From the sequence record OR544954: DNA of 64,000 nt; one strand, 5' to 3'. This DNA comes from Escherichia phage vB_EcoM_EP32a. The first letter of the stretch is position 1; each line of letters starts with the position of its first letter. Below the pieces are notes generated by a model, which made no database searches, was not told the DNA's origin, and saw nothing but the letters and a program-made list of their open reading frames with translations. Below, piece by piece: positions 38,426 through 59,706 of this stretch. Made by a program: the position numbers and the translations under genes.

Positions 38426-39000
38426 TATGCAATCTCCATCTCACGAATCAAATCTGTGATAAACGAGTTTATATCTTCTTTTGCAACAATTTTTATTTTA
38501 CGAAGTTTTTCATTATCTAATACTGCCGCTTCATAAGTATCTACTGCAGCTAAAGGTCCTTTATATTGCGGATACTTACGAGCTTCATCACCTTTATCGT
38601 ACCACACTAAAGGCTCGTCCGGATATGAAACCAAATTGTAAAATTTCTCACGGTTCTCGTTAATATGATAAAGAATTTGGTCTCCGCCGGCATTTGCATA
38701 TTTCTGAATAGAAGCTTGATACGCTGCTTCCTGAGATGTAATCCAACCATAATACGGGTCGTAGTTATCGTTGCACATCAAAAGAACCCAGTATAATTGT
38801 GGGTTTCCATAAATTATGTTTGCTAGTTCTTCAGGACGTGGAGAGCCTTTAATGTAATAAGAACGTAATCTATAATTGGCCGCCACACGCTTAAAGTACT
38901 CTTTATAGTTACGAAATATGTCTGTCATAGGAATAGTAGGTGCATTCTTATTAACTGTTTTAGCACTATATCCTATTGGGTCGAAGAATGTAAATAACAA
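38425..39000 (-). CDS. 53: baseplate wedge protein gp53
   Basis: 191 aa ORF upstream of gene 5, divergent from gene 4. Confidence 0.85.
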   Translation of the reverse strand: MLFTFFDPIGYSAKTVNKNAPTIPMTDIFRNYKEYFKRVAANYRLRSYYIKGSPRPEELANIIYGNPQLYWVLLMCNDNYDPYYGWITSQEAAYQASIQKYANAGGDQILYHINENREKFYNLVSYPDEPLVWYDKGDEARKYPQYKGPLAAVDTYEAAVLDNEKLRKIKIVAKEDINSFITDLIREMEIA

Positions 39001-39027
39001 GATAGTCTCCTTCCAATATGAAATTGG

Positions 39028-39050
39028 TATAAATAATAATACTATTTATA
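39028..39050. promoter_or_regulatory. divergent late promoters for gene 4 (+) and gene 53 (-)
   Basis: TATAAATA at 39028-39035 (plus; gene 4 ATG at 39062) and tatttata at 39043-39050 (TATAAATA on minus; gene 53 ATG at 39000). Confidence 0.6.
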
Positions 39051-39061
39051 AGGAGGACAAC

Positions 39062-39511
39062 ATGGCCTACTCTGGTAAATGGGTCCCAAAAAATTTAAAA
39101 AAATACCGTGGAGACCATACCAAAATAACGTATCGTTCAAACTGGGAAAAATTCTTTTTCGAATGGTTGGATAAAAATCCAGAAATTATTGCATGGGGTA
39201 GTGAAACAGCAGTAATTCCATATTTTTGTAATGCTGAAGGTAAGAAACGTCGATACTATATGGACATATGGATGAAAGATGCATCAGGCCAAGAGTTTTT
39301 TGTAGAAATAAAACCAAAGAAAGAAACTCAACCACCTATTAAGCCCGTAAATCTTACGACCGCAGCAAAGAAACGTTATATGAATGAAATCTACACGTGG
39401 TCTGTGAACTGTGACAAATGGAAAGCTGCTTCAGCTGTTGCTGAAAAGAGAAATATAAAATTTCGAGTTCTAACCGAAGATGGACTTAGGAAACTCGGAT
39501 ACAAGGGGTAA
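39062..39511 (+). CDS. 4: head completion protein gp4
   Basis: ORF track starts at 38918 but RBS aaggagg plus the Met at 39062 ([18 protein letters not shown]...) match the T4 gp4 N-terminus (150 aa). Confidence 0.9.
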
Positions 39512-41022: not shown

Positions 41023-41075
41023 TCGCTTCTAGCTCCGTATGTTATAATCACTCATAAATTATATGAGGAAAACCT

Positions 41076-41810
41076 ATGGAGCTAATCTTTTTAAGCGGCA
41101 TCAAACGTAGTGGTAAAGACACCACTGCTGATTACATCAATTCAAACTTTAAATCCGTAAAATATCAATTGGCATATCCAATTAAAGACGCTCTAGCAAT
41201 AGCCTGGGGACGTAGGCATGCTGAAAATCCTGATGTATTCACAGAGTTGAAATACGAATACTTTGAAGGCATTGGATACGACCGTGAAACACCATTAAAT
41301 CTCAATAAGTTGGATGTTATTGAATTATTGGAAGAAGCGCTAATTTATTTGCAAAGCCAATATTTACCAATTAATAATGTTAAAGTATTATCATCGTTAG
41401 AAGGTGGATATTCGTATCTAGATATTAAACCATATGAAGCCCTGCGTGAAGCTATAAATAATATCAACGACACATGGTCAATCCGCCGTCTTATGCAAGC
41501 CCTCGGTACGGATGTTGTCGTTAATTTATTTGACCGTATGTATTGGGTTAAACTTTTTGCATTAAACTATATGGATTATATTGGAAGTGATTTCGATTAC
41601 TATGTCGTAACCGATACACGTCAAGTCCATGAAATGGAAACCGCTAGAGCGATGGGTGCTACAGTTATTCATGTGGTTCGCTCTGGTACGGAATCCACCG
41701 ATAAACATATTACAGAAGCTGGGTTGCCTATTGAAGAAGGCGATTTAGTTATTACAAACGACGGCTCTTTAGAAGAGCTTTATTCTAAAATTGAAACAAT
41801 CTTAAGGTAA
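41076..41810 (+). CDS. 1: deoxynucleoside monophosphate kinase gp1
   Basis: 244 aa ORF with P-loop GIKRSGKDT near the N-terminus. Confidence 0.9.
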   Translation: MELIFLSGIKRSGKDTTADYINSNFKSVKYQLAYPIKDALAIAWGRRHAENPDVFTELKYEYFEGIGYDRETPLNLNKLDVIELLEEALIYLQSQYLPINNVKVLSSLEGGYSYLDIKPYEALREAINNINDTWSIRRLMQALGTDVVVNLFDRMYWVKLFALNYMDYIGSDFDYYVVTDTRQVHEMETARAMGATVIHVVRSGTESTDKHITEAGLPIEEGDLVITNDGSLEELYSKIETILR

Positions 41811-51838: not shown

Positions 51839-52071
51839 GTATAGCAATTTACATTAAATCAGAATCATGTGATAGTTATCTGTACACATACGATAAAGAT
51901 GTGTCAGAAGAAAAAATCAAAGACGACCTTAATACGGATCTTGATATGTTCTGTCCTATTGCAGATTACAAACTTGCGGTCTCTAATAGTGAAAGTCCAT
52001 CTAAAGAAACGCGCATTGAAGAATTTATGTCCGAATTAATGGCCAAATCATGGGACCGAGATGATGAGTAA
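51835..52071 (+). CDS. hypothetical acidic protein
   Basis: ORF track starts at 51820; Met at 51835 overlaps the upstream stop (ATGA). Confidence 0.5.
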   Translation: MSIAIYIKSESCDSYLYTYDKDVSEEKIKDDLNTDLDMFCPIADYKLAVSNSESPSKETRIEEFMSELMAKSWDRDDE

Positions 52072-52519
52072 GAAAAATAAAGTGAAAGAACTATCAGCCG
52101 GTATTATTTTCCTTACCGAAGATAAAGAATTATTCATGGGGCGTGTAACTGGTTCTCGTCCTAAAGGTTCTTTAGCTCATCGCTGGGATATTCCTAAAGG
52201 ACGTGTCGAGCCCGGTGAATCTCCTATTGAAGCCGCTATTCGCGAATGCGAAGAAGAAACTGGGTTTACACAATATGACCCTGCCTTCCTGAAAGACCTA
52301 GGTGAACATCATTACTCAGACAATAAGAATATTCATCTGTTCCTATATACCATCCCTGTAGAGCACGAGCAATTCAGAAACAGTGCTTGTAATTCCTATC
52401 ATACATTCCCAGACGGACGACAGATTCCTGAATTTGATGCGTTCGCTTTAATTAAACCTTCTCAATGGGAATATGTAATGGGCAAATCATTATATAAGGT
52501 GCTCACTACCCTCCTATAA
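52064..52519 (+). CDS. nudE: Nudix hydrolase NudE (e.1)
   Basis: Nudix box GRVEPGESPIEAAIRECEEETGF; immediately upstream of lysozyme e as in T4. Confidence 0.9.
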   Translation: MSKKNKVKELSAGIIFLTEDKELFMGRVTGSRPKGSLAHRWDIPKGRVEPGESPIEAAIRECEEETGFTQYDPAFLKDLGEHHYSDNKNIHLFLYTIPVEHEQFRNSACNSYHTFPDGRQIPEFDAFALIKPSQWEYVMGKSLYKVLTTLL

Positions 52520-52525
52520 GTAATA

Positions 52526-52553
52526 AATACCTCCTATAAACGTGGGAGGTATT
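52526..52553 (+). promoter_or_regulatory. RBS-sequestering hairpin with late-promoter-like TATAAA in the loop, upstream of e
   Basis: 9-bp perfect inverted repeat aatacctcc / ggaggtatt; the 3' arm contains the Shine-Dalgarno ggagg and ends 1 nt before the e ATG. Confidence 0.65.
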
Positions 52554-53042
52554 ATGAATATATTTGAAATGCTTCGTAATGACGAAGGTCTTAGACTGAC
52601 TTTATACAAAGACACTGAAGGCTTTTGGACGATTGGCATAGGCCATTTAGTAACAAAGAACCCATCTTTAGCCGTAGCTAAAGCTGAACTTGACAGAATG
52701 ATCGGACGTAAATGCAACGGTACAATTACCCTTGATGAGGCTGAAAAGCTATTTAATGAAGACGTTGATAAAGCTGTTCGCGGAATCTTGGGTAATGCTA
52801 AACTTAAACCGGTATATGATTCTTTAGATGCAGTTCGTCGATGTGCATTGGTCAATATGGTCTTCCAAATGGGTGTAACAGGCGTCGCCGGTTTTACTAA
52901 TTCTCTTCGTATGCTTCAACAGAAACGTTGGGACGAGGCGGCAGTAAATCTAGCCCAATCTAAATGGTACCGTCAGACACCTAATCGCGCGAAACGCGTA
53001 ATCTCAACATTTAAAACAGGAACTTGGAAAGCGTATATATGA
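52554..53042 (+). CDS. e: endolysin (T4 lysozyme, gene e)
   Basis: ORF track starts at 52542; Met at 52554 gives [32 protein letters not shown]..., near-identical to T4 lysozyme including the catalytic E11/D20 region. Confidence 0.95.
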
Positions 53043-53320
53043 AAACATATAGTGAATTTTTATCAGAATCTATTCTTAACGAAGCTACTGACACATTTGC
53101 AACTAAGCTAGGTGCAGCTTTGGTTGAAGCTGAAAGTCTATTAGCACGTATTTCTGAACTTGCTAGTAAGATAGATACTCGCAAATTTGAACGTACCAGC
53201 GATATCGCTAAGCTTGAAGCCTTGTTGCGTATGTGTGATAAACCGGAAGAAATCGCTAAGAACGGCTCGCTGATGAAACAACGTCTTGAAAAATATATTT
53301 CAGGCGCTTCAGAAAAATAG
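53039..53320 (+). CDS. internal protein (IPII/IPIII-like)
   Basis: ORF track starts at 53024; Met at 53039 overlaps the e stop (ATGA); N-terminal capsid targeting sequence [10 protein letters not shown] followed by ILNE, which fits a gp21 cleavage site. Confidence 0.7.
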
Positions 53321-53321
53321 T

Positions 53322-53378
53322 GTTTACTTCCTCCAAGGGTTTTGATACTATACATTCATCAACTACTTGGAGGAAATT
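53322..53378 (+). promoter_or_regulatory. early promoter with RBS-sequestering hairpin upstream of denV
   Basis: GTTTAC, 18-nt spacer, TACTAT; 10-bp perfect inverted repeat ttcctccaag / cttggaggaa; the 3' arm contains the denV Shine-Dalgarno. Confidence 0.65.
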
Positions 53379-53792
53379 ATGACTCGTATCAATTTAACAC
53401 TTGTTTCTGAACTGACCGACCAACATCTTATGGCTGAGTATCGTGAATTACCACGCGTATTTGGTGCAGTCCGTAAACATGTTCAAAACGGTAAACGTGT
53501 AAAGGATTTTAAAATCTCTCCAACATTTATCTTAGGCACAGGTCACGTAACATTCTTTTACGACAAACTCGAATTTTTACGTTTACGTCAAATCGAGCTA
53601 ATCGCTGAATGCTTGAAACGTGGTTTCAAAATCAAGGACACGACTGTTCAGGATATTTCCGACATCCCTGCCGAATTTCGTAATAATTACGTCCCGTCCG
53701 AAGCGTCCATTGCGATAAGTCAAGCACGCTTAGATGAAAAAATTGCTCAACGTCCGACTTGGTACAAATACTATGGTAAATCAATTTACTAA
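53379..53792 (+). CDS. denV: endonuclease V (pyrimidine dimer DNA glycosylase)
   Basis: ORF track starts at 53367; Met at 53379 gives [35 protein letters not shown]..., near-identical to T4 DenV. Confidence 0.95.
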
Positions 53793-53799
53793 GGAAAAA

Positions 53800-54060
53800 A
53801 TGAAAATGTATCAAGAATTTATCATTGAAGCAGATGCCAAAGACCCTAAATTTAAAGTTAAAGCTTTCATTGGTGATGCGGAAGACTTTGGCTCATTAAA
53901 ACGTAATGGGTATTCTTTCTTAGGTGGTGATGGTAAAGAAATCAACACCTATGCAAAACGTAGTGAAATTGCTTATGTTGTAGTAAGTCCTAAAGTAGAT
54001 GTTGACGATATTGGATACGATTTTAACAACTTCGGAATTATTTCTGGCGGTAAAGCTTAA
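53800..54060 (+). CDS. internal protein (IP-like)
   Basis: ORF track starts at 53734; RBS aagga plus Met at 53800; capsid targeting sequence MKMYQEFIIE; 86 aa. Confidence 0.65.
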   Translation: MKMYQEFIIEADAKDPKFKVKAFIGDAEDFGSLKRNGYSFLGGDGKEINTYAKRSEIAYVVVSPKVDVDDIGYDFNNFGIISGGKA

Positions 54061-54063
54061 ATT

Positions 54064-54123
54064 GTTTACGCTTAAGTATTAATATGGTATAATTACTCTA
54101 TCAAAACAAACAAGGAAACAAAA
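54064..54123 (+). promoter_or_regulatory. early promoter cassette (GTTTAC, 18 nt, TATAAT)
   Basis: Consensus-like -35/-10 followed by the conserved leader ctatcaaaacaaacaaggaaacaaaaATG. Confidence 0.65.
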
Positions 54124-54201
54124 ATGAAAACATATAAAGAATTTATCGCCGATCCAACCTGTAATAAGGTCGAGCCCAAGTGCGGTAATGGGTTTACATA
54201 G
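54124..54201 (+). pseudogene. truncated internal-protein gene remnant (25 codons)
   Basis: ORF starts with the capsid targeting sequence MKTYKEFIA but stops after 25 codons (MKTYKEFIADPTCNKVEPKCGNGFT*). Confidence 0.5.
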
Positions 54202-54257
54202 CGAGTCGAAGGACCTAACATGTGCCACGGAATGGCCCAAACCTTAAGAGAAATAAT

Positions 54258-54428
54258 ATGAGAACATTTTTAACTGGACCTTATCTATCCCTGATGAATG
54301 CTTTTACACACCATTCTGATGCTAGAGTAGAAGAAATTTGTAAGAACGGTTATGTCCCGCCATTTGAAGAAGTACTCAAGCAGTACTGTACACTTCGTTT
54401 AGACGGCGGCCGACAATCCGGTAAATAA
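54258..54428 (+). CDS. hypothetical small protein
   Basis: ORF track starts at 54222; Met at 54258 (MRTFLTGPYLSL...) preceded by an A-rich RBS-like region. Confidence 0.45.
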   Translation: MRTFLTGPYLSLMNAFTHHSDARVEEICKNGYVPPFEEVLKQYCTLRLDGGRQSGK

Positions 54429-54434
54429 ATTGCT

Positions 54435-54797
54435 GTGACTAACTTTGCTGCTAATTGGCTGTATGATGGTGGAACAGTTATTGTTCTTTCTAATACTTCA
54501 GCTTATGCTAAAATTTCTGCTGGCAACATTAAAAAAGAATTTTCTCGTTATTCTAGCGATGATATTCGATTCCGTTTATTTACTGATTCTGTTCGTAGTT
54601 TTATTGGCAATGAAGGTTCTAAATTCCGTGGATTAACGCTTTCTCGTATTCTGTATATAATTGACGAGCCTATTAAAGCTCCTGATATGGATAAGATTTA
54701 CAATGTACATATTAAAACAGTCCAACACTGTTGCAAAAGCAAATATTGCATCGGCGGTAATGCTCGTCCTCAATTTTTTGTGATTGGAATGCAATGA
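54435..54797 (+). CDS. hypothetical protein, GTG start
   Basis: 120 aa ORF; only GTG available as start, 7 nt after the upstream stop. Confidence 0.4.
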   Translation: MTNFAANWLYDGGTVIVLSNTSAYAKISAGNIKKEFSRYSSDDIRFRLFTDSVRSFIGNEGSKFRGLTLSRILYIIDEPIKAPDMDKIYNVHIKTVQHCCKSKYCIGGNARPQFFVIGMQ

Positions 54798-55102
54798 TGA
54801 CCACTATTGAAGTTTTTGAGTATTGTTATAACAGTCCAGTATGCAATAAAAGGGCCCTTGTAGAAAATTACGAGATTTACCATTTTAAACCTAAACGATA
54901 TCGTTTGACTAAAGGTCCGTTCGCAGGGCAGCAGGTTCTTTGTACTGCTCCTAATGCACGACTGATGACTAGTATTCCACATTTCAAAATGGAATTTATT
55001 GATGGGCCATTTAAGGGATTAATCACTCAAAGTTTAATGGCGTTTAATTCCGACCCATTTTTGATTAAAGAAAAATCTTGGATAAATTTATTTTCTAATT
55101 GA
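54794..55102 (+). CDS. hypothetical protein
   Basis: 102 aa; ATGATGA overlap with the upstream stop. Confidence 0.5.
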   Translation: MMTTIEVFEYCYNSPVCNKRALVENYEIYHFKPKRYRLTKGPFAGQQVLCTAPNARLMTSIPHFKMEFIDGPFKGLITQSLMAFNSDPFLIKEKSWINLFSN

Positions 55103-55108
55103 GGTTAT

Positions 55109-55471
55109 ATGAAAGCATATCAAATTCTTGAAGGTGCACATAAAGGCACTATTTATTTTGAAGACGGTACTCAAGCCAGGATTATTGTCTCTAAGACTTT
55201 TAAAGAAGACGCTATTGTAGACCCGGAAATTTTCTACGGTTTGAATGCCCGTGAAATTGAAATTGAACATCAACCTAAAGTTAAAATTGAAGGTGGACAA
55301 CATCTGAACGTTAACGTTCTGCGTCGTGAAACTCTAGAAGATGCAGTTAAGCATCCAGAAAAATATCCGCAGCTGACCATCCGTGTATCTGGTTATGCAG
55401 TTCGCTTTAACTCTCTGACTCCGGAACAGCAGCGTGACGTTATCGCTCGCACCTTTACTGAGAGTCTATAA
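55109..55471 (+). CDS. autonomous glycyl radical cofactor (GrcA/YfiD-like; T4 Y06I-type)
   Basis: C-terminal glycyl-radical domain [62 protein letters not shown], essentially the E. coli GrcA / PflB C-terminus. Confidence 0.85.
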
Positions 55472-55695
55472 TGGCTAAATTGATTATAGAAGGGTCTGAA
55501 GATGTTTTAAAATGTTTTGCCGCCTGGTTTAGTTGCTCAGGCGAGCAATCATTCACTGAAGCATTTAGAATGGGTGATATTACTGGAAACTATCCGACAA
55601 CTGATATCACTGTACGTGGATATGGTATTAATGAGCCTATCCAATTGGTCGAATATGACCTTGCCACCGATGAGGAAATTCCTTATGTCGATTGA
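55471..55695 (+). CDS. hypothetical protein
   Basis: 74 aa; ATG overlaps the grcA-like stop. Confidence 0.5.
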   Translation: MAKLIIEGSEDVLKCFAAWFSCSGEQSFTEAFRMGDITGNYPTTDITVRGYGINEPIQLVEYDLATDEEIPYVD

Positions 55696-55817
55696 AGACA
55701 TCAAAGGCTACAAGCCGCATACCGATGATAAAATCAGTAAAGTGAACGCTATTAAAGATGCAGAAGTTCGTGTCGTGCAGTATTTCGACCTGAGGAAAAA
55801 TACTAATGGCTAGAGTA

Positions 55818-55874
55818 GTTTACTTCTCCTCTAGTTGTGTTACTATAGACCTGTCAACTAGAGGAGAAATCAAA
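55818..55874 (+). promoter_or_regulatory. early promoter with 14-bp RBS-sequestering hairpin upstream of regB
   Basis: GTTTAC, spacer, TACTAT; perfect 14-bp inverted repeat ttctcctctagttg / caactagaggagaa; the 3' arm contains the SD gaggag. Confidence 0.65.
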
Positions 55875-56333
55875 ATGACTATCAATTCAGACGTTTTTAT
55901 CCGTCGTAATAAACTCCGTCGAATCTTTGAAACGGAGTTCCGCAAAATAAATGCCGGTATAAAAGATGCTGCAAAGTCTCTTGGACTACCAGGCTTTCAT
56001 ATCAAGTATTCTCAACATCTCTTAGATCGTGCCATCCAGAGAGAAATAGATGAGAATTACGTTTTTGAATTATTTCATAAAGTAAAAAATCACGTTAAAG
56101 AAGTTGCAGAATTTTTATCAATGCCGGCACGTCCAGATGTTGATGAAGATTTTGTCGAAGGTGTCGAGTATCGTCCAGGCCGTTTAGAAATAACTGACGG
56201 AAATCTTTGGTTAGGACTTACAGTTTGTCGCGAAAATCCGACATTCAAAATGAAGACTCTTCAATGTAGAATGGCTATTATTAACAGTAAACGACTACCA
56301 GGAAAAGCTTCTAAAGCAGTGATTAAAATCTAG
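55875..56333 (+). CDS. regB: RegB site-specific endoribonuclease
   Basis: ORF track starts at 55806; Met at 55875 gives MTINSDVFIRRNKLRR...FHIKYSQHLLDRAIQREIDE..., closely matching T4 RegB (about 153 aa). Confidence 0.9.
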   Translation: MTINSDVFIRRNKLRRIFETEFRKINAGIKDAAKSLGLPGFHIKYSQHLLDRAIQREIDENYVFELFHKVKNHVKEVAEFLSMPARPDVDEDFVEGVEYRPGRLEITDGNLWLGLTVCRENPTFKMKTLQCRMAIINSKRLPGKASKAVIKI

Positions 56334-56341
56334 AGGTAAAC

Positions 56342-56884
56342 ATGAGAAAAGCACTACTCGCTGGTCTATTTGCTCTTTCATTATCAGCACATAGCTCCGA
56401 GCATACTTTTAGTAATGTCCAACTCGATAACTTGAATTATGCTTATCAGTTTGGGGAACAGTTTTCTAAGGACGGAAAATTTAAAACGCATGAAAATATG
56501 CATAAGAAAGGACTTGGATACATAATGGCCGCAATACTATGGCAAGAATCATCTGCCGGTATTAATCTTAAAGATAAGAAAGGTCACCATGCGTATGGAA
56601 TGTTCCAAAATTATCTACCAACAATGAGGGCAAGAATTAACCAGCTTGGTTATAATATGACTGATGCCCAAATTAAGAAAATGCTATCTAAGCGGTCTAA
56701 TTCAGCCAGATGGGCTTATATCGAATTTTCTTATTGGTTAAATATACATAACGGGGATATAAGAAAAGCTATATCCTCATATAATGCGGGATGGAAGACA
56801 AGTGCTGGAAGTAAATATGCTTCTGAAGTCCTAGAAAAGGCTAATTACCTTAAATCAAATAAACTACTGGAAATAAAAGAATGA
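56342..56884 (+). CDS. secreted lytic transglycosylase-like protein (SLT domain)
   Basis: Signal-peptide-like N-terminus MRKALLAGLFALSLSAHS; SLT family motifs WQESSAG, AYGMFQ, SSYNAGW. Confidence 0.55.
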   Translation: MRKALLAGLFALSLSAHSSEHTFSNVQLDNLNYAYQFGEQFSKDGKFKTHENMHKKGLGYIMAAILWQESSAGINLKDKKGHHAYGMFQNYLPTMRARINQLGYNMTDAQIKKMLSKRSNSARWAYIEFSYWLNIHNGDIRKAISSYNAGWKTSAGSKYASEVLEKANYLKSNKLLEIKE

Positions 56885-58897: not shown

Positions 58898-59110
58898 ATG
58901 CAGCAATTAAACGAAAGACAACTTCGTAATCTTACTGTAACCCAATTGGATGAAATCCGAAGAGAATTAGGACATTCTATTTCTCATTTAAACGAGGATA
59001 TCCGTCAAACTGGTTCTAAAGCTGATTATACACGCAAGCGCAAGCTGGAAAAATACCTCGCAGATGTTAAGGCCGTCCAAAGGCGAAAAATAAATACTGG
59101 CCAAAATTAA
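58898..59110 (+). CDS. hypothetical basic protein
   Basis: 70 aa; RBS agaggta. Confidence 0.5.
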
Positions 59111-59122
59111 CAGGAGGCCTAT

Positions 59123-59425
59123 ATGGCCTTAAGAGCGATAGCTGTCATGGCGATGCTGGGGTTTTTTGCAGCAACAACTCCTATCGTTGGTACTGCATAT
59201 ATCGACCCATATTTTGATAACTTTATGGAATCAGGGATTAAAAACGTATATACTTTGTTTGAAATTCAAAATGTTGAGAATTCTGAAAAATTCTATAAGT
59301 ATATGGCAAAGCATTACAAAAATAGTCCCTGTGATGATGCATTTGAATGTCATGAACAAGGCATAAAAACCGCCAGACAATTTGCTGAGTTCATGAAAAT
59401 AAAATTAGAGCCTACATCTATCTAA
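59123..59425 (+). CDS. rI: lysis inhibition regulator rI (membrane-anchored)
   Basis: 100 aa; N-terminal anchor MALRAIAVMAMLGFF...; FMESGIKNVYTLFE and KNSPCDDAFEC motifs resemble T4 RI. Confidence 0.8.
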   Translation: MALRAIAVMAMLGFFAATTPIVGTAYIDPYFDNFMESGIKNVYTLFEIQNVENSEKFYKYMAKHYKNSPCDDAFECHEQGIKTARQFAEFMKIKLEPTSI

Positions 59426-59470: not shown

Positions 59471-59526
59471 GTTTACTTTTCCTCAGGTTGTGTTATAGTA
59501 GTCCTTACTTACTAGAGGAGAACATT
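59471..59526 (+). promoter_or_regulatory. early promoter cassette (GTTTAC, 17 nt, TATAGT)
   Basis: -35/-10 then leader ctagaggagaacattATG. Confidence 0.6.
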
Positions 59527-59706
59527 ATGACACGTAAAGAAAAAATTTCTAAGTTAATGTTTTTGATTGAAGAGTACGCTAATGCGGTATCTGATTGGGA
59601 AAATGCTCATGGTTGCGAAGATGGAGACATCGACATTAACAGAGCTATGAAAAAGATGGCTGACGCCCACACCGAATTGCAAATGTATGTTAACGAGATT
59701 ATGTGA
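59527..59706 (+). CDS. hypothetical small protein
   Basis: ORF track starts at 59458 (across the promoter); Met at 59527 after RBS gaggag; 59 aa. Confidence 0.5.
   Translation: MTRKEKISKLMFLIEEYANAVSDWENAHGCEDGDIDINRAMKKMADAHTELQMYVNEIM

Follow-up and report, generated by a model that had tools for sequence, protein, structure and literature searches.

Promoter-spanning hairpins at the ribosome binding sites of e, denV and regB in an RB69-like phage: candidate translational insulators

Results

The 64,000-nucleotide stretch of Escherichia phage vB_EcoM_EP32a DNA analysed here (sequence record OR544954; the window) encodes lysozyme (gene e, 52554..53042, 162 aa), endonuclease V (denV, 53379..53792, 137 aa) and an endoribonuclease (regB, 55875..56333, 152 aa), and upstream of each of these genes an inverted repeat takes in the Shine-Dalgarno (SD) sequence. 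The three genes and the features described for them lie on the + strand of the window, which is the early-transcribed strand. The identities of e, denV and regB follow from the 98% DNA identity of positions 52000-56500 to the annotated Escherichia phages APCEc01 and RB69 (genus Mosigvirus), and judged by its sequence the phage is an RB69-like member of the T4 type.

In the leader of e the 5' arm spans 52526..52537, with nine perfectly matched nucleotides (AATACCTCC, 52526-52534) and an extension to 52537 through G-U pairs, while the 3' arm spans 52542..52553, with its perfect part GGAGGTATT at 52545-52553 and the SD sequence GGAGG at 52545-52549. The stem comprises 9 perfect bp, or 12 bp counting two G-U pairs, is closed by an AAAC tetraloop and ends 0 nt from the ATG at 52554. 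For denV the arms are TTCCTCCAAG (53328..53337) and CTTGGAGGAA (53366..53375), which form a perfect stem of 10 bp with a 3 nt gap to the ATG at 53379. The arms of regB, TTCTCCTCTAGTTG (55824..55837) and CAACTAGAGGAGAA (55855..55868), pair perfectly over 14 bp, 6 nt short of the ATG at 55875. Each of the three 3' arms holds the SD sequence as GGAGG or GGAG (GGAG in regB). A previous reading of the DNA from its letters alone (the sequence-only reading) had reported perfect repeats of 9, 10 and 14 bp at these genes, with SD-bearing 3' arms close to the ATG, and its coordinates were verified. The RefSeq start of e in RB69 is the codon equivalent to Met6 (position 2070 of RB69 locus L002), which gives a protein of 157 aa, and the ATG at 52554 gives 162 aa; the T4 start, the SD spacing and the hairpin geometry support the latter.

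Perfect stems overlapping the ribosome binding site were surveyed at the 100 called gene starts of the window, with dinucleotide shuffles of the upstream sequence as the control. Those of e, denV and regB are the three longest. Three stems of at least 9 bp were observed against 0.34 expected, two of at least 10 bp against 0.06, and one of at least 14 bp against 0. These counts speak against the possibility that CT-rich promoter spacers just happen to complement purine-rich SD sequences. That explanation draws on the CTCC/GGAG core being short and recurrent, and on swapped partners still pairing over ~6-7 bp on average, but the arms reach well past the SD core, most early promoter spacers in the window are not complementary to their own SD sequence, and the complementarity is lineage-specific (0/20,000 permutations, see below). 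A chance or compositional origin of the repeats is strongly disfavoured and, in our judgement, very improbable.

The denV and regB hairpins are interleaved with promoters of the early type. Early promoters were recognised, as in T4, by a GTTTAC-type -35 element, a spacer of 17 +/- 1 nt and an (extended) -10 element TGnTAnnnT; for the PST/T4 pair the consensus is TTTACW-N17-TAYWAT (PMC4122927). The denV promoter (53322..53351) consists of GTTTAC at 53322-53327, an 18 nt spacer and TGa followed by TACTAT at 53346-53351, with a predicted +1 at ~53358. That of regB (55818..55846) consists of GTTTAC at 55818-55823, a 17 nt spacer and TGt followed by TACTAT at 55841-55846, with a predicted +1 at ~55853. 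Both are conserved in relatives. The 5' arm of denV lies within the spacer and that of regB occupies most of it, which agrees with the earlier placement of both arms between the -35 and -10 elements.

For e, the candidate promoter is of the late type, for which we required an 8 bp box, either TATAAATA or a documented variant, ~6 nt 5' of +1. Such a box is found in AATAAATA (52522..52529), a variant with A at -13 that shares 4 nt with the start of the 5' arm. Among the documented variants of the late box, A at -13 is the most frequent, occurring in 9/50 listed T4 late promoters (Geiduschek & Kassavetis 2010, PMC2988020). The predicted +1 at ~52535 falls immediately past the perfect 5' arm, and therefore the late e RNA would be open. 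Across 24 distinct e leaders the sole invariant block is ATAAATAC, directly 5' of and overlapping the 5' arm; the box itself is TATAAATA, AATAAATA or GATAAATA depending on the phage, and in nearly all relatives the 5' arm lies at about -9..+2 relative to the predicted late +1.

The sequence-only reading had instead pointed to a late-promoter-like TATAAA in the loop of the e hairpin. The motif is there, as TATAAACG (52535..52542) in the loop of the 9 bp stem, but it does not qualify as a late promoter and is probably non-functional, because it has two mismatches to TATAAATA, is not conserved (a loop box occurs among the relatives in T4-type sequences only) and implies, when read directly from the sequence, a +1 at ~52548, inside the GGAGG of the SD. 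The late promoter of e is thus probably AATAAATA and not the loop TATAAA, in agreement with the mapped upstream late promoter of T4 e (Uzan & Miller 2010, PMC3014915).

A direct repeat, CCTCCTATAA, lies 5' of e at 52510-52519 and 52530-52539 (within 52508-52539). In read-through RNA its upstream copy (CCCTCC) could act as an alternative partner of GGGAGG; that copy is not conserved in a close relative, L003, which has CCATCC.

The hairpins stand out in predicted energy as well. Unpairing -15..+3 takes an ensemble free energy of 16.8 (e), 13.7 (denV) and 12.8 (regB) kcal/mol, values that rank 1, 5 and 8 among the 100 gene starts, whose median is 5.8. In read-through contexts the hairpins are part of both the minimum free energy structure and the centroid, and these contexts fold with z = -3.2 (e), -3.1 (denV) and -2.2 (regB). 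With 120 nt of upstream RNA present, opening -15..+3 is predicted to cost 17.4 (e), 13.9 (denV) and 14.6 (regB) kcal/mol, as against 3.6-5.3 (e), 2.9-3.0 (denV) and 2.3-3.1 (regB) kcal/mol in RNA that begins at the predicted +1. Promoter-initiated leaders fold no better than shuffles (z = -1.4, +0.5 and +0.8, respectively). Folding the two kinds of leader side by side had been proposed by the sequence-only reading, and the outcome, 13.9-17.4 against 2.3-5.3 kcal/mol, went its way. In sum, each leader holds an SD-containing stem (9-12, 10 and 14 bp) that ends 0, 3 and 6 nt before the ATG and costs 13-17 kcal/mol to open, and at the level of motifs each stem encloses a predicted start site (~52535 for e, ~53358 for denV and ~55853 for regB).

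The genes are co-oriented and tightly packed, and early-type promoters lie upstream. Read-through into the e, denV and regB hairpins is plausible because no terminator-like site of the intrinsic type exceeds the shuffle expectation between the upstream co-oriented early-type promoters and the hairpins.

Homologous leaders were collected by a denV-anchored scan of IMG/VR, which returned 36 loci of T4-like or jumbo phages, most of which also contain e and regB. The hairpins persist in T4 and ~35 related phage contigs with differing arm sequences. In T4 the arms are AATACCTTC / GGAGGTATT at e, TCTCCTGTAG / CTACAGGAGA at denV and TTTTCCTCTTGACTG / CAGTTAAGAGGAGAA at regB. A compact hairpin containing the SD sequence is found in all distinct e leaders except two, that of L036, where the stem has 5 bp only, and that of L023, where the best helix is formed with an arm far upstream. 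Compensatory changes extend into the SD sequence itself, as in the e leader of L015, which pairs CCCC with GGGG. In the regB and denV leaders the GTTTAC promoter is conserved while the arms are highly variable; besides the TCTCCTGTAG/CTACAGGAGA pair of T4 denV they include ATCTCCTTTTAGT/ACTAAAAGGAGAT, ATCCTCATTTG/CAAATGAGGAT, ATCTCCGTTTG/CAAACGGAGAT and CTCCTCTTG/CAAGAGGAG.

Covariation was assessed by detecting the helix in each sequence separately, collapsing the leaders to distinct 3'-arm classes and comparing cognate with permuted partners in 20,000 permutations; column-based covariation on MAFFT alignments was not used, as indels shift the two arms out of register. For regB (17 classes) the mean cognate helix score was 9.94 against 6.83 +/- 0.38 for permuted partners, and for denV (21 classes) it was 8.36 against 6.39 +/- 0.32, with 0/20,000 permutations reaching the observed value in either case. 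Therefore the complementarity at these two genes is lineage-specific and goes beyond the match of CTCC with GGAG. The contrast for e, where leaders were split at the loop, was weak (8.58 against 7.21), since the e arms are dominated by the SD core.

The position of the start site is likewise maintained. Among homologues with a strong stem, the predicted transcription start site lies 3' of the 5' arm in 21/21 regB and 22/22 denV leaders; in all of these the 5' arm extends no further than 2 nt past the predicted +1, and the 3' arm starts downstream of +1. This is the geometry expected if the promoter lies inside the hairpin. Some phages show a second geometry at denV, in which the 5' arm is formed by the -10 hexamer and the discriminator.

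Discussion

The elements upstream of e, denV and regB are likely translational insulators built around promoters. In RNA that enters from upstream, the SD sequence would be locked in a stem of 9-14 bp (up to 12-15 bp), blocking binding of the 30S subunit, and in read-through RNA of e the nucleotides as far as the AUG would be locked too. Transcription from the embedded promoter would start 3' of the 5' arm and yield RNA with the 3' arm alone, which would be translatable. The sequence-only reading had proposed this division between occluded read-through RNA and promoter-initiated RNA that lacks the 5' arm, and energetics, covariation, start-site geometry and recurrence, all computational, agree with it. 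The hairpins themselves are real and conserved, and the mechanism is plausible; the start sites, the existence of read-through RNA and the effect on translation are predictions from the sequence.

What the device would achieve depends on the kind of promoter enclosed. At e the late (gp55) box overlaps the 5' arm, and early read-through RNA would be silent and late RNA translated. At denV and regB a sigma-70 early promoter carries the 5' arm in its -35/-10 spacer, a segment that could diverge freely since sigma does not read its sequence. With an early instead of a late promoter embedded, the temporal logic of denV and regB would therefore be inverted relative to e. Translation would proceed only from short-lived, promoter-proximal early transcripts, and RNA reading through from early, middle or late promoters further upstream would stay silent, including late transcripts from e or the internal-protein gene in the case of denV and transcripts from the vs.x genes in the case of regB. 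For regB the hairpin would add to a known autoregulation, in which RegB cuts its own SD sequence.

Several observations weigh against this interpretation. The upstream open reading frames (ORFs) stop only 6, 7 and 10 nt short of the 5' arms, and a terminating ribosome could briefly melt the stem and allow coupled re-initiation; in T4 e, however, the stop has a similar spacing of 7 nt and yet the gene is strongly repressed (PMC3014915). As the leaders are short (~20-27 nt), there is little room for any other placement of the 5' arm, and the argument from geometry is of limited weight. Part of the arm covariation may reflect wholesale replacement of cassettes rather than stepwise compensation, the denV and regB cassettes being nearly identical in L005-L009. 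A strong SD-containing stem is absent in a minority of relatives (regB of L021/L037 and L026/L028; denV of L015, L018 and L020). Lastly, spacers complementary to the SD sequence occur in only ~3-4 of the ~12 early-type promoter cassettes with a downstream gene in the window. Three of these spacers belong to denV, regB and, with weaker pairing, the mobD.2a homologue.

The e element is the known T4 mechanism. The hairpin of the T4 e leader, with internal late promoters, was reportedly described by McPheeters et al. in 1986. In T4 the inhibitory structure has been demonstrated, with a ~100-fold effect and late transcripts that lack the 5' strand (Uzan & Miller 2010, PMC3014915), and similar e leaders in close T4 relatives have already been noted (PMC3014915). 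The element in the window is the orthologous structure, as the SD sequence and the nucleotides adjacent to the AUG are paired and the late box overlaps the 5' arm. It differs from that of T4 in its stronger stem, which has a C-G in place of a U-G pair and 12 bp with a tetraloop, and in its promoters: where T4 has a second TATAAATA in the loop, the window has the degenerate TATAAACG, leaving AATAAATA as the one plausible late box.

The denV and regB elements belong to the same class of ribosome-site hairpins, which keep the long RNA closed and leave transcripts of the embedded promoter open. At soc and 49, members of that class, a late promoter is embedded in the hairpin. Hairpins of this closed/open kind have been described for soc, 49, I-TevI/II/III, Aeh1 mobE and segB (PMC3014915, section 29), with the embedded late promoter of e and I-TevI leading to late translation (PMC3014915). 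Unlike these, denV and regB would use an early sigma-70 promoter with the 5' arm in its -35/-10 spacer, and neither is among the ribosome-site hairpin genes listed in PMC3014915. We found no prior description of the denV/regB hairpin design in the full-text literature; this is provisional, as older subscription literature was not covered. A search of 52000-56500 on both strands with the Rfam 15 covariance models gave no match at E <= 1, and the GenBank records of T4 carry no promoter or stem-loop annotation in the corresponding region.

Another way to read the denV and regB elements is as the promoter/stem-loop cassettes known as PeSL (promoter-early stem-loop), in which the stem-loop attenuates or terminates transcription arriving from upstream and provides, through a conserved sequence, a linker for the recombination that shuffles small genes, the pairing with the SD sequence being incidental. 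Cassettes of promoter, stem-loop and SD sequence are established in T4-type phages, with stems between -35 and -10 or overlapping -10 (Arbiol 2010, PMC2839356; Comeau 2014, PMC4122927); according to the same papers, one PeSL stem-loop of RB49 lowered the output of a lacZ reporter placed 3' of it to an extent similar to that of a strong terminator, and analogous elements were noted at T-even internal-protein loci. The intergenic layout is shared and comprises an AT-rich region, an early promoter with a stem-loop inside or around it, the SD sequence and the ATG (PMC2839356, PMC4122927), and cassettes of this type are found at ~12 sites in the window. Both sorts recur in front of a number of small early genes, close to indel junctions; compared with RB69, a deletion of 208 bp in the window stops 7 nt 5' of the regB -35 element, and the near-identical cassettes of L005-L009 would also fit a role in recombination. 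At most other early promoters in the window (42514, 42869, 48818, 50113 and 59920) inverted repeats flank the -10 element.

The two sorts of element also differ. PeSL stem-loops are self-contained, whereas the 3' arm at denV and regB is specifically the SD region, with complementarity kept through many arm sequences, and the loop contains -10 and +1. Homologous recombination needs no intramolecular complementarity. The authors of the PeSL papers take the stem-loops for terminators or attenuators and recombination linkers, with no reference to translation or SD sequestration. As for termination, no U-tract follows the denV or regB hairpin and neither was flagged as terminator-like in the scan; the reading of these stems as intrinsic terminators was rejected, at the level of sequence, for want of a U-tract. 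We consider it unlikely that a PeSL-type role accounts for the hairpins with SD pairing as a by-product, although such a role and translational occlusion are mutually compatible.

The hairpins might instead govern mainly the fate of the RNA, by shielding GGAG from RegB or by affecting the stability or processing of long transcripts. RNase III substrates typically have ~20 bp, and stems of 9-15 bp fall below that. RegB does cut GGAG in early SD sequences, secondary structure inhibits it, and in phages related to T4 RegB also targets the SD of regB (PMC3014915); GGAG is present within all three 3' arms. The SD of T4 denV, in contrast, is RegB-resistant in vivo owing to its 3' flank and not to structure (PMC1702504). 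Therefore shielding from RegB is no general explanation, and as a main role it was rejected, being unneeded for denV. Moreover, a paired SD sequence is untranslatable whatever the fate of the RNA, which makes any such effect an added consequence and not an alternative to translational insulation. A role chiefly in RNA fate seems improbable to us, more so than the PeSL reading.

If translational insulation is correct, a single device, a ribosome site in a stem with a promoter inside that stem, would give opposite temporal windows in T4-type phages. Lysozyme synthesis would be confined to the late period, and that of RegB and endonuclease V to immediate-early proximal transcripts, even though read-through transcription is continuous. 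The arrangement would account for the way in which synthesis of a potentially toxic RNase from long early, middle and late transcripts is avoided, would assign a function to an otherwise unconstrained promoter spacer and would refine the interpretation of the widespread PeSL cassettes. It would also be relevant to the annotation and engineering of T4-like therapeutic phages, where a gene moved without its spacer arm would be translated differently.

The sequence-only reading had presented the three loci as a repeated design principle. The design does recur at further genes, but with only a minority of early promoters, and is a recurrent option rather than a universal rule. At the mobD.2a homologue (ORF 59527-59706, + strand; GTTTAC at 59471 and TATAGT at 59494) the spacer sequence TTTTCCTC (59477-59484) pairs with the SD sequence GAGGAGAA (59515-59522) over 8 bp, including one G-U, and opening is predicted to take 13.1 kcal/mol in read-through RNA against 4.3 kcal/mol in promoter-initiated RNA. 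In the first 50 kb of T4 (L084, NC_000866 1-50000), the early promoters of motB.2 (TCCTCGGTAG / CTACTGAGGA), mrh.2 (TACTTTCC / GGAGAGTA) and modB (TATGATAGCTTC / GAGGCTATCATG) have 5' arms complementary to their own ribosome binding sites, which suggests that the device may be present in roughly a quarter of T4 early promoters.

Other promoter classes offer candidates too. Gene 1, a homologue of deoxynucleoside monophosphate (dNMP) kinase (41076-41810, + strand), has a hairpin of AGCTCCGTAT (41031-41040) and ATGGAGCT (41076-41083) that sequesters the AUG, with the 5' arm between the MotA-box-like CGCTTCTA (41024) and an extended -10 element TGtTATAAT (41040). Opening it costs 16.5 kcal/mol, a value exceeded at only one other gene start in the window. 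In T4, gene 1 is laid out alike, with other arms (GTTTTGTGTGTT / AACACATGAAAC) and the MotA box TGCTTCA, and from its sequence the element looks like a middle-promoter version of the hairpin/promoter design. It is located 3' of the late genes 4-2-3. At rI (59123-59425, + strand), TTAAGGCC (59067-59074) pairs with GGCCTTAA (59125-59132, codons 1-4 of rI) and the loop contains the late-type box AATAAATA at 59089-59096; the arms in T4 are identical.

It is possible, though we hold it only tentatively and think it rather doubtful, that arms complementary to SD sequences in the spacers of early, MotA-type middle and late promoters form a general insulation layer of the Tevenvirinae that has gone unrecognised as a class. 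Candidate members would be regB, denV, mobD.2a, motB.2, mrh.2, modB, gene 1 and rI. Under this scenario, a defined subset of genes would be translatable only from their own proximal promoters, and some PeSL 'terminator' stem-loops would be translational gates.

Most of the other GTTTAC-type promoters of the window (42514, 42869, 48818, 50113, 59920, + strand) have a different repeat, for example ATAGGACTA-tgtTATAGT-AGTCCTAT. The 3' arm of these -10-flanking repeats spans the conserved start region (..CCTATCAA..), which fits the published PeSL stem-loops (AGNA-loop-TCNT). Complementary SD regions with TATAAATA boxes between them were also seen in two back-to-back divergent pairs of late genes, at 1360-1408 (ACTCCTTT / AAAGGAGT) and 39000-39062 (CTCCTT / AAGGAG). 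This complementarity is probably a trivial result of two opposed SD sequences, yet it inflates counts of ribosome-site stems.

Three segments of RB69 are missing from the window, at 54152/54153, 55771 and 55811. The 208 bp gap at 55811 (RB69 L002 6166-6373) removes ORF117c and is the one whose junction adjoins the regB promoter, consistent with a role of promoter cassettes as boundaries of indels and with the recombination idea. The gap of 144 bp at 55771 (RB69 L002 5981-6124) lies inside vs.4. The largest, 710 bp at 54152/54153 (RB69 L002 3653-4362), has taken most of ORF124c and all of ORF123c, leaving a 26-codon stub downstream of a promoter at 54064.

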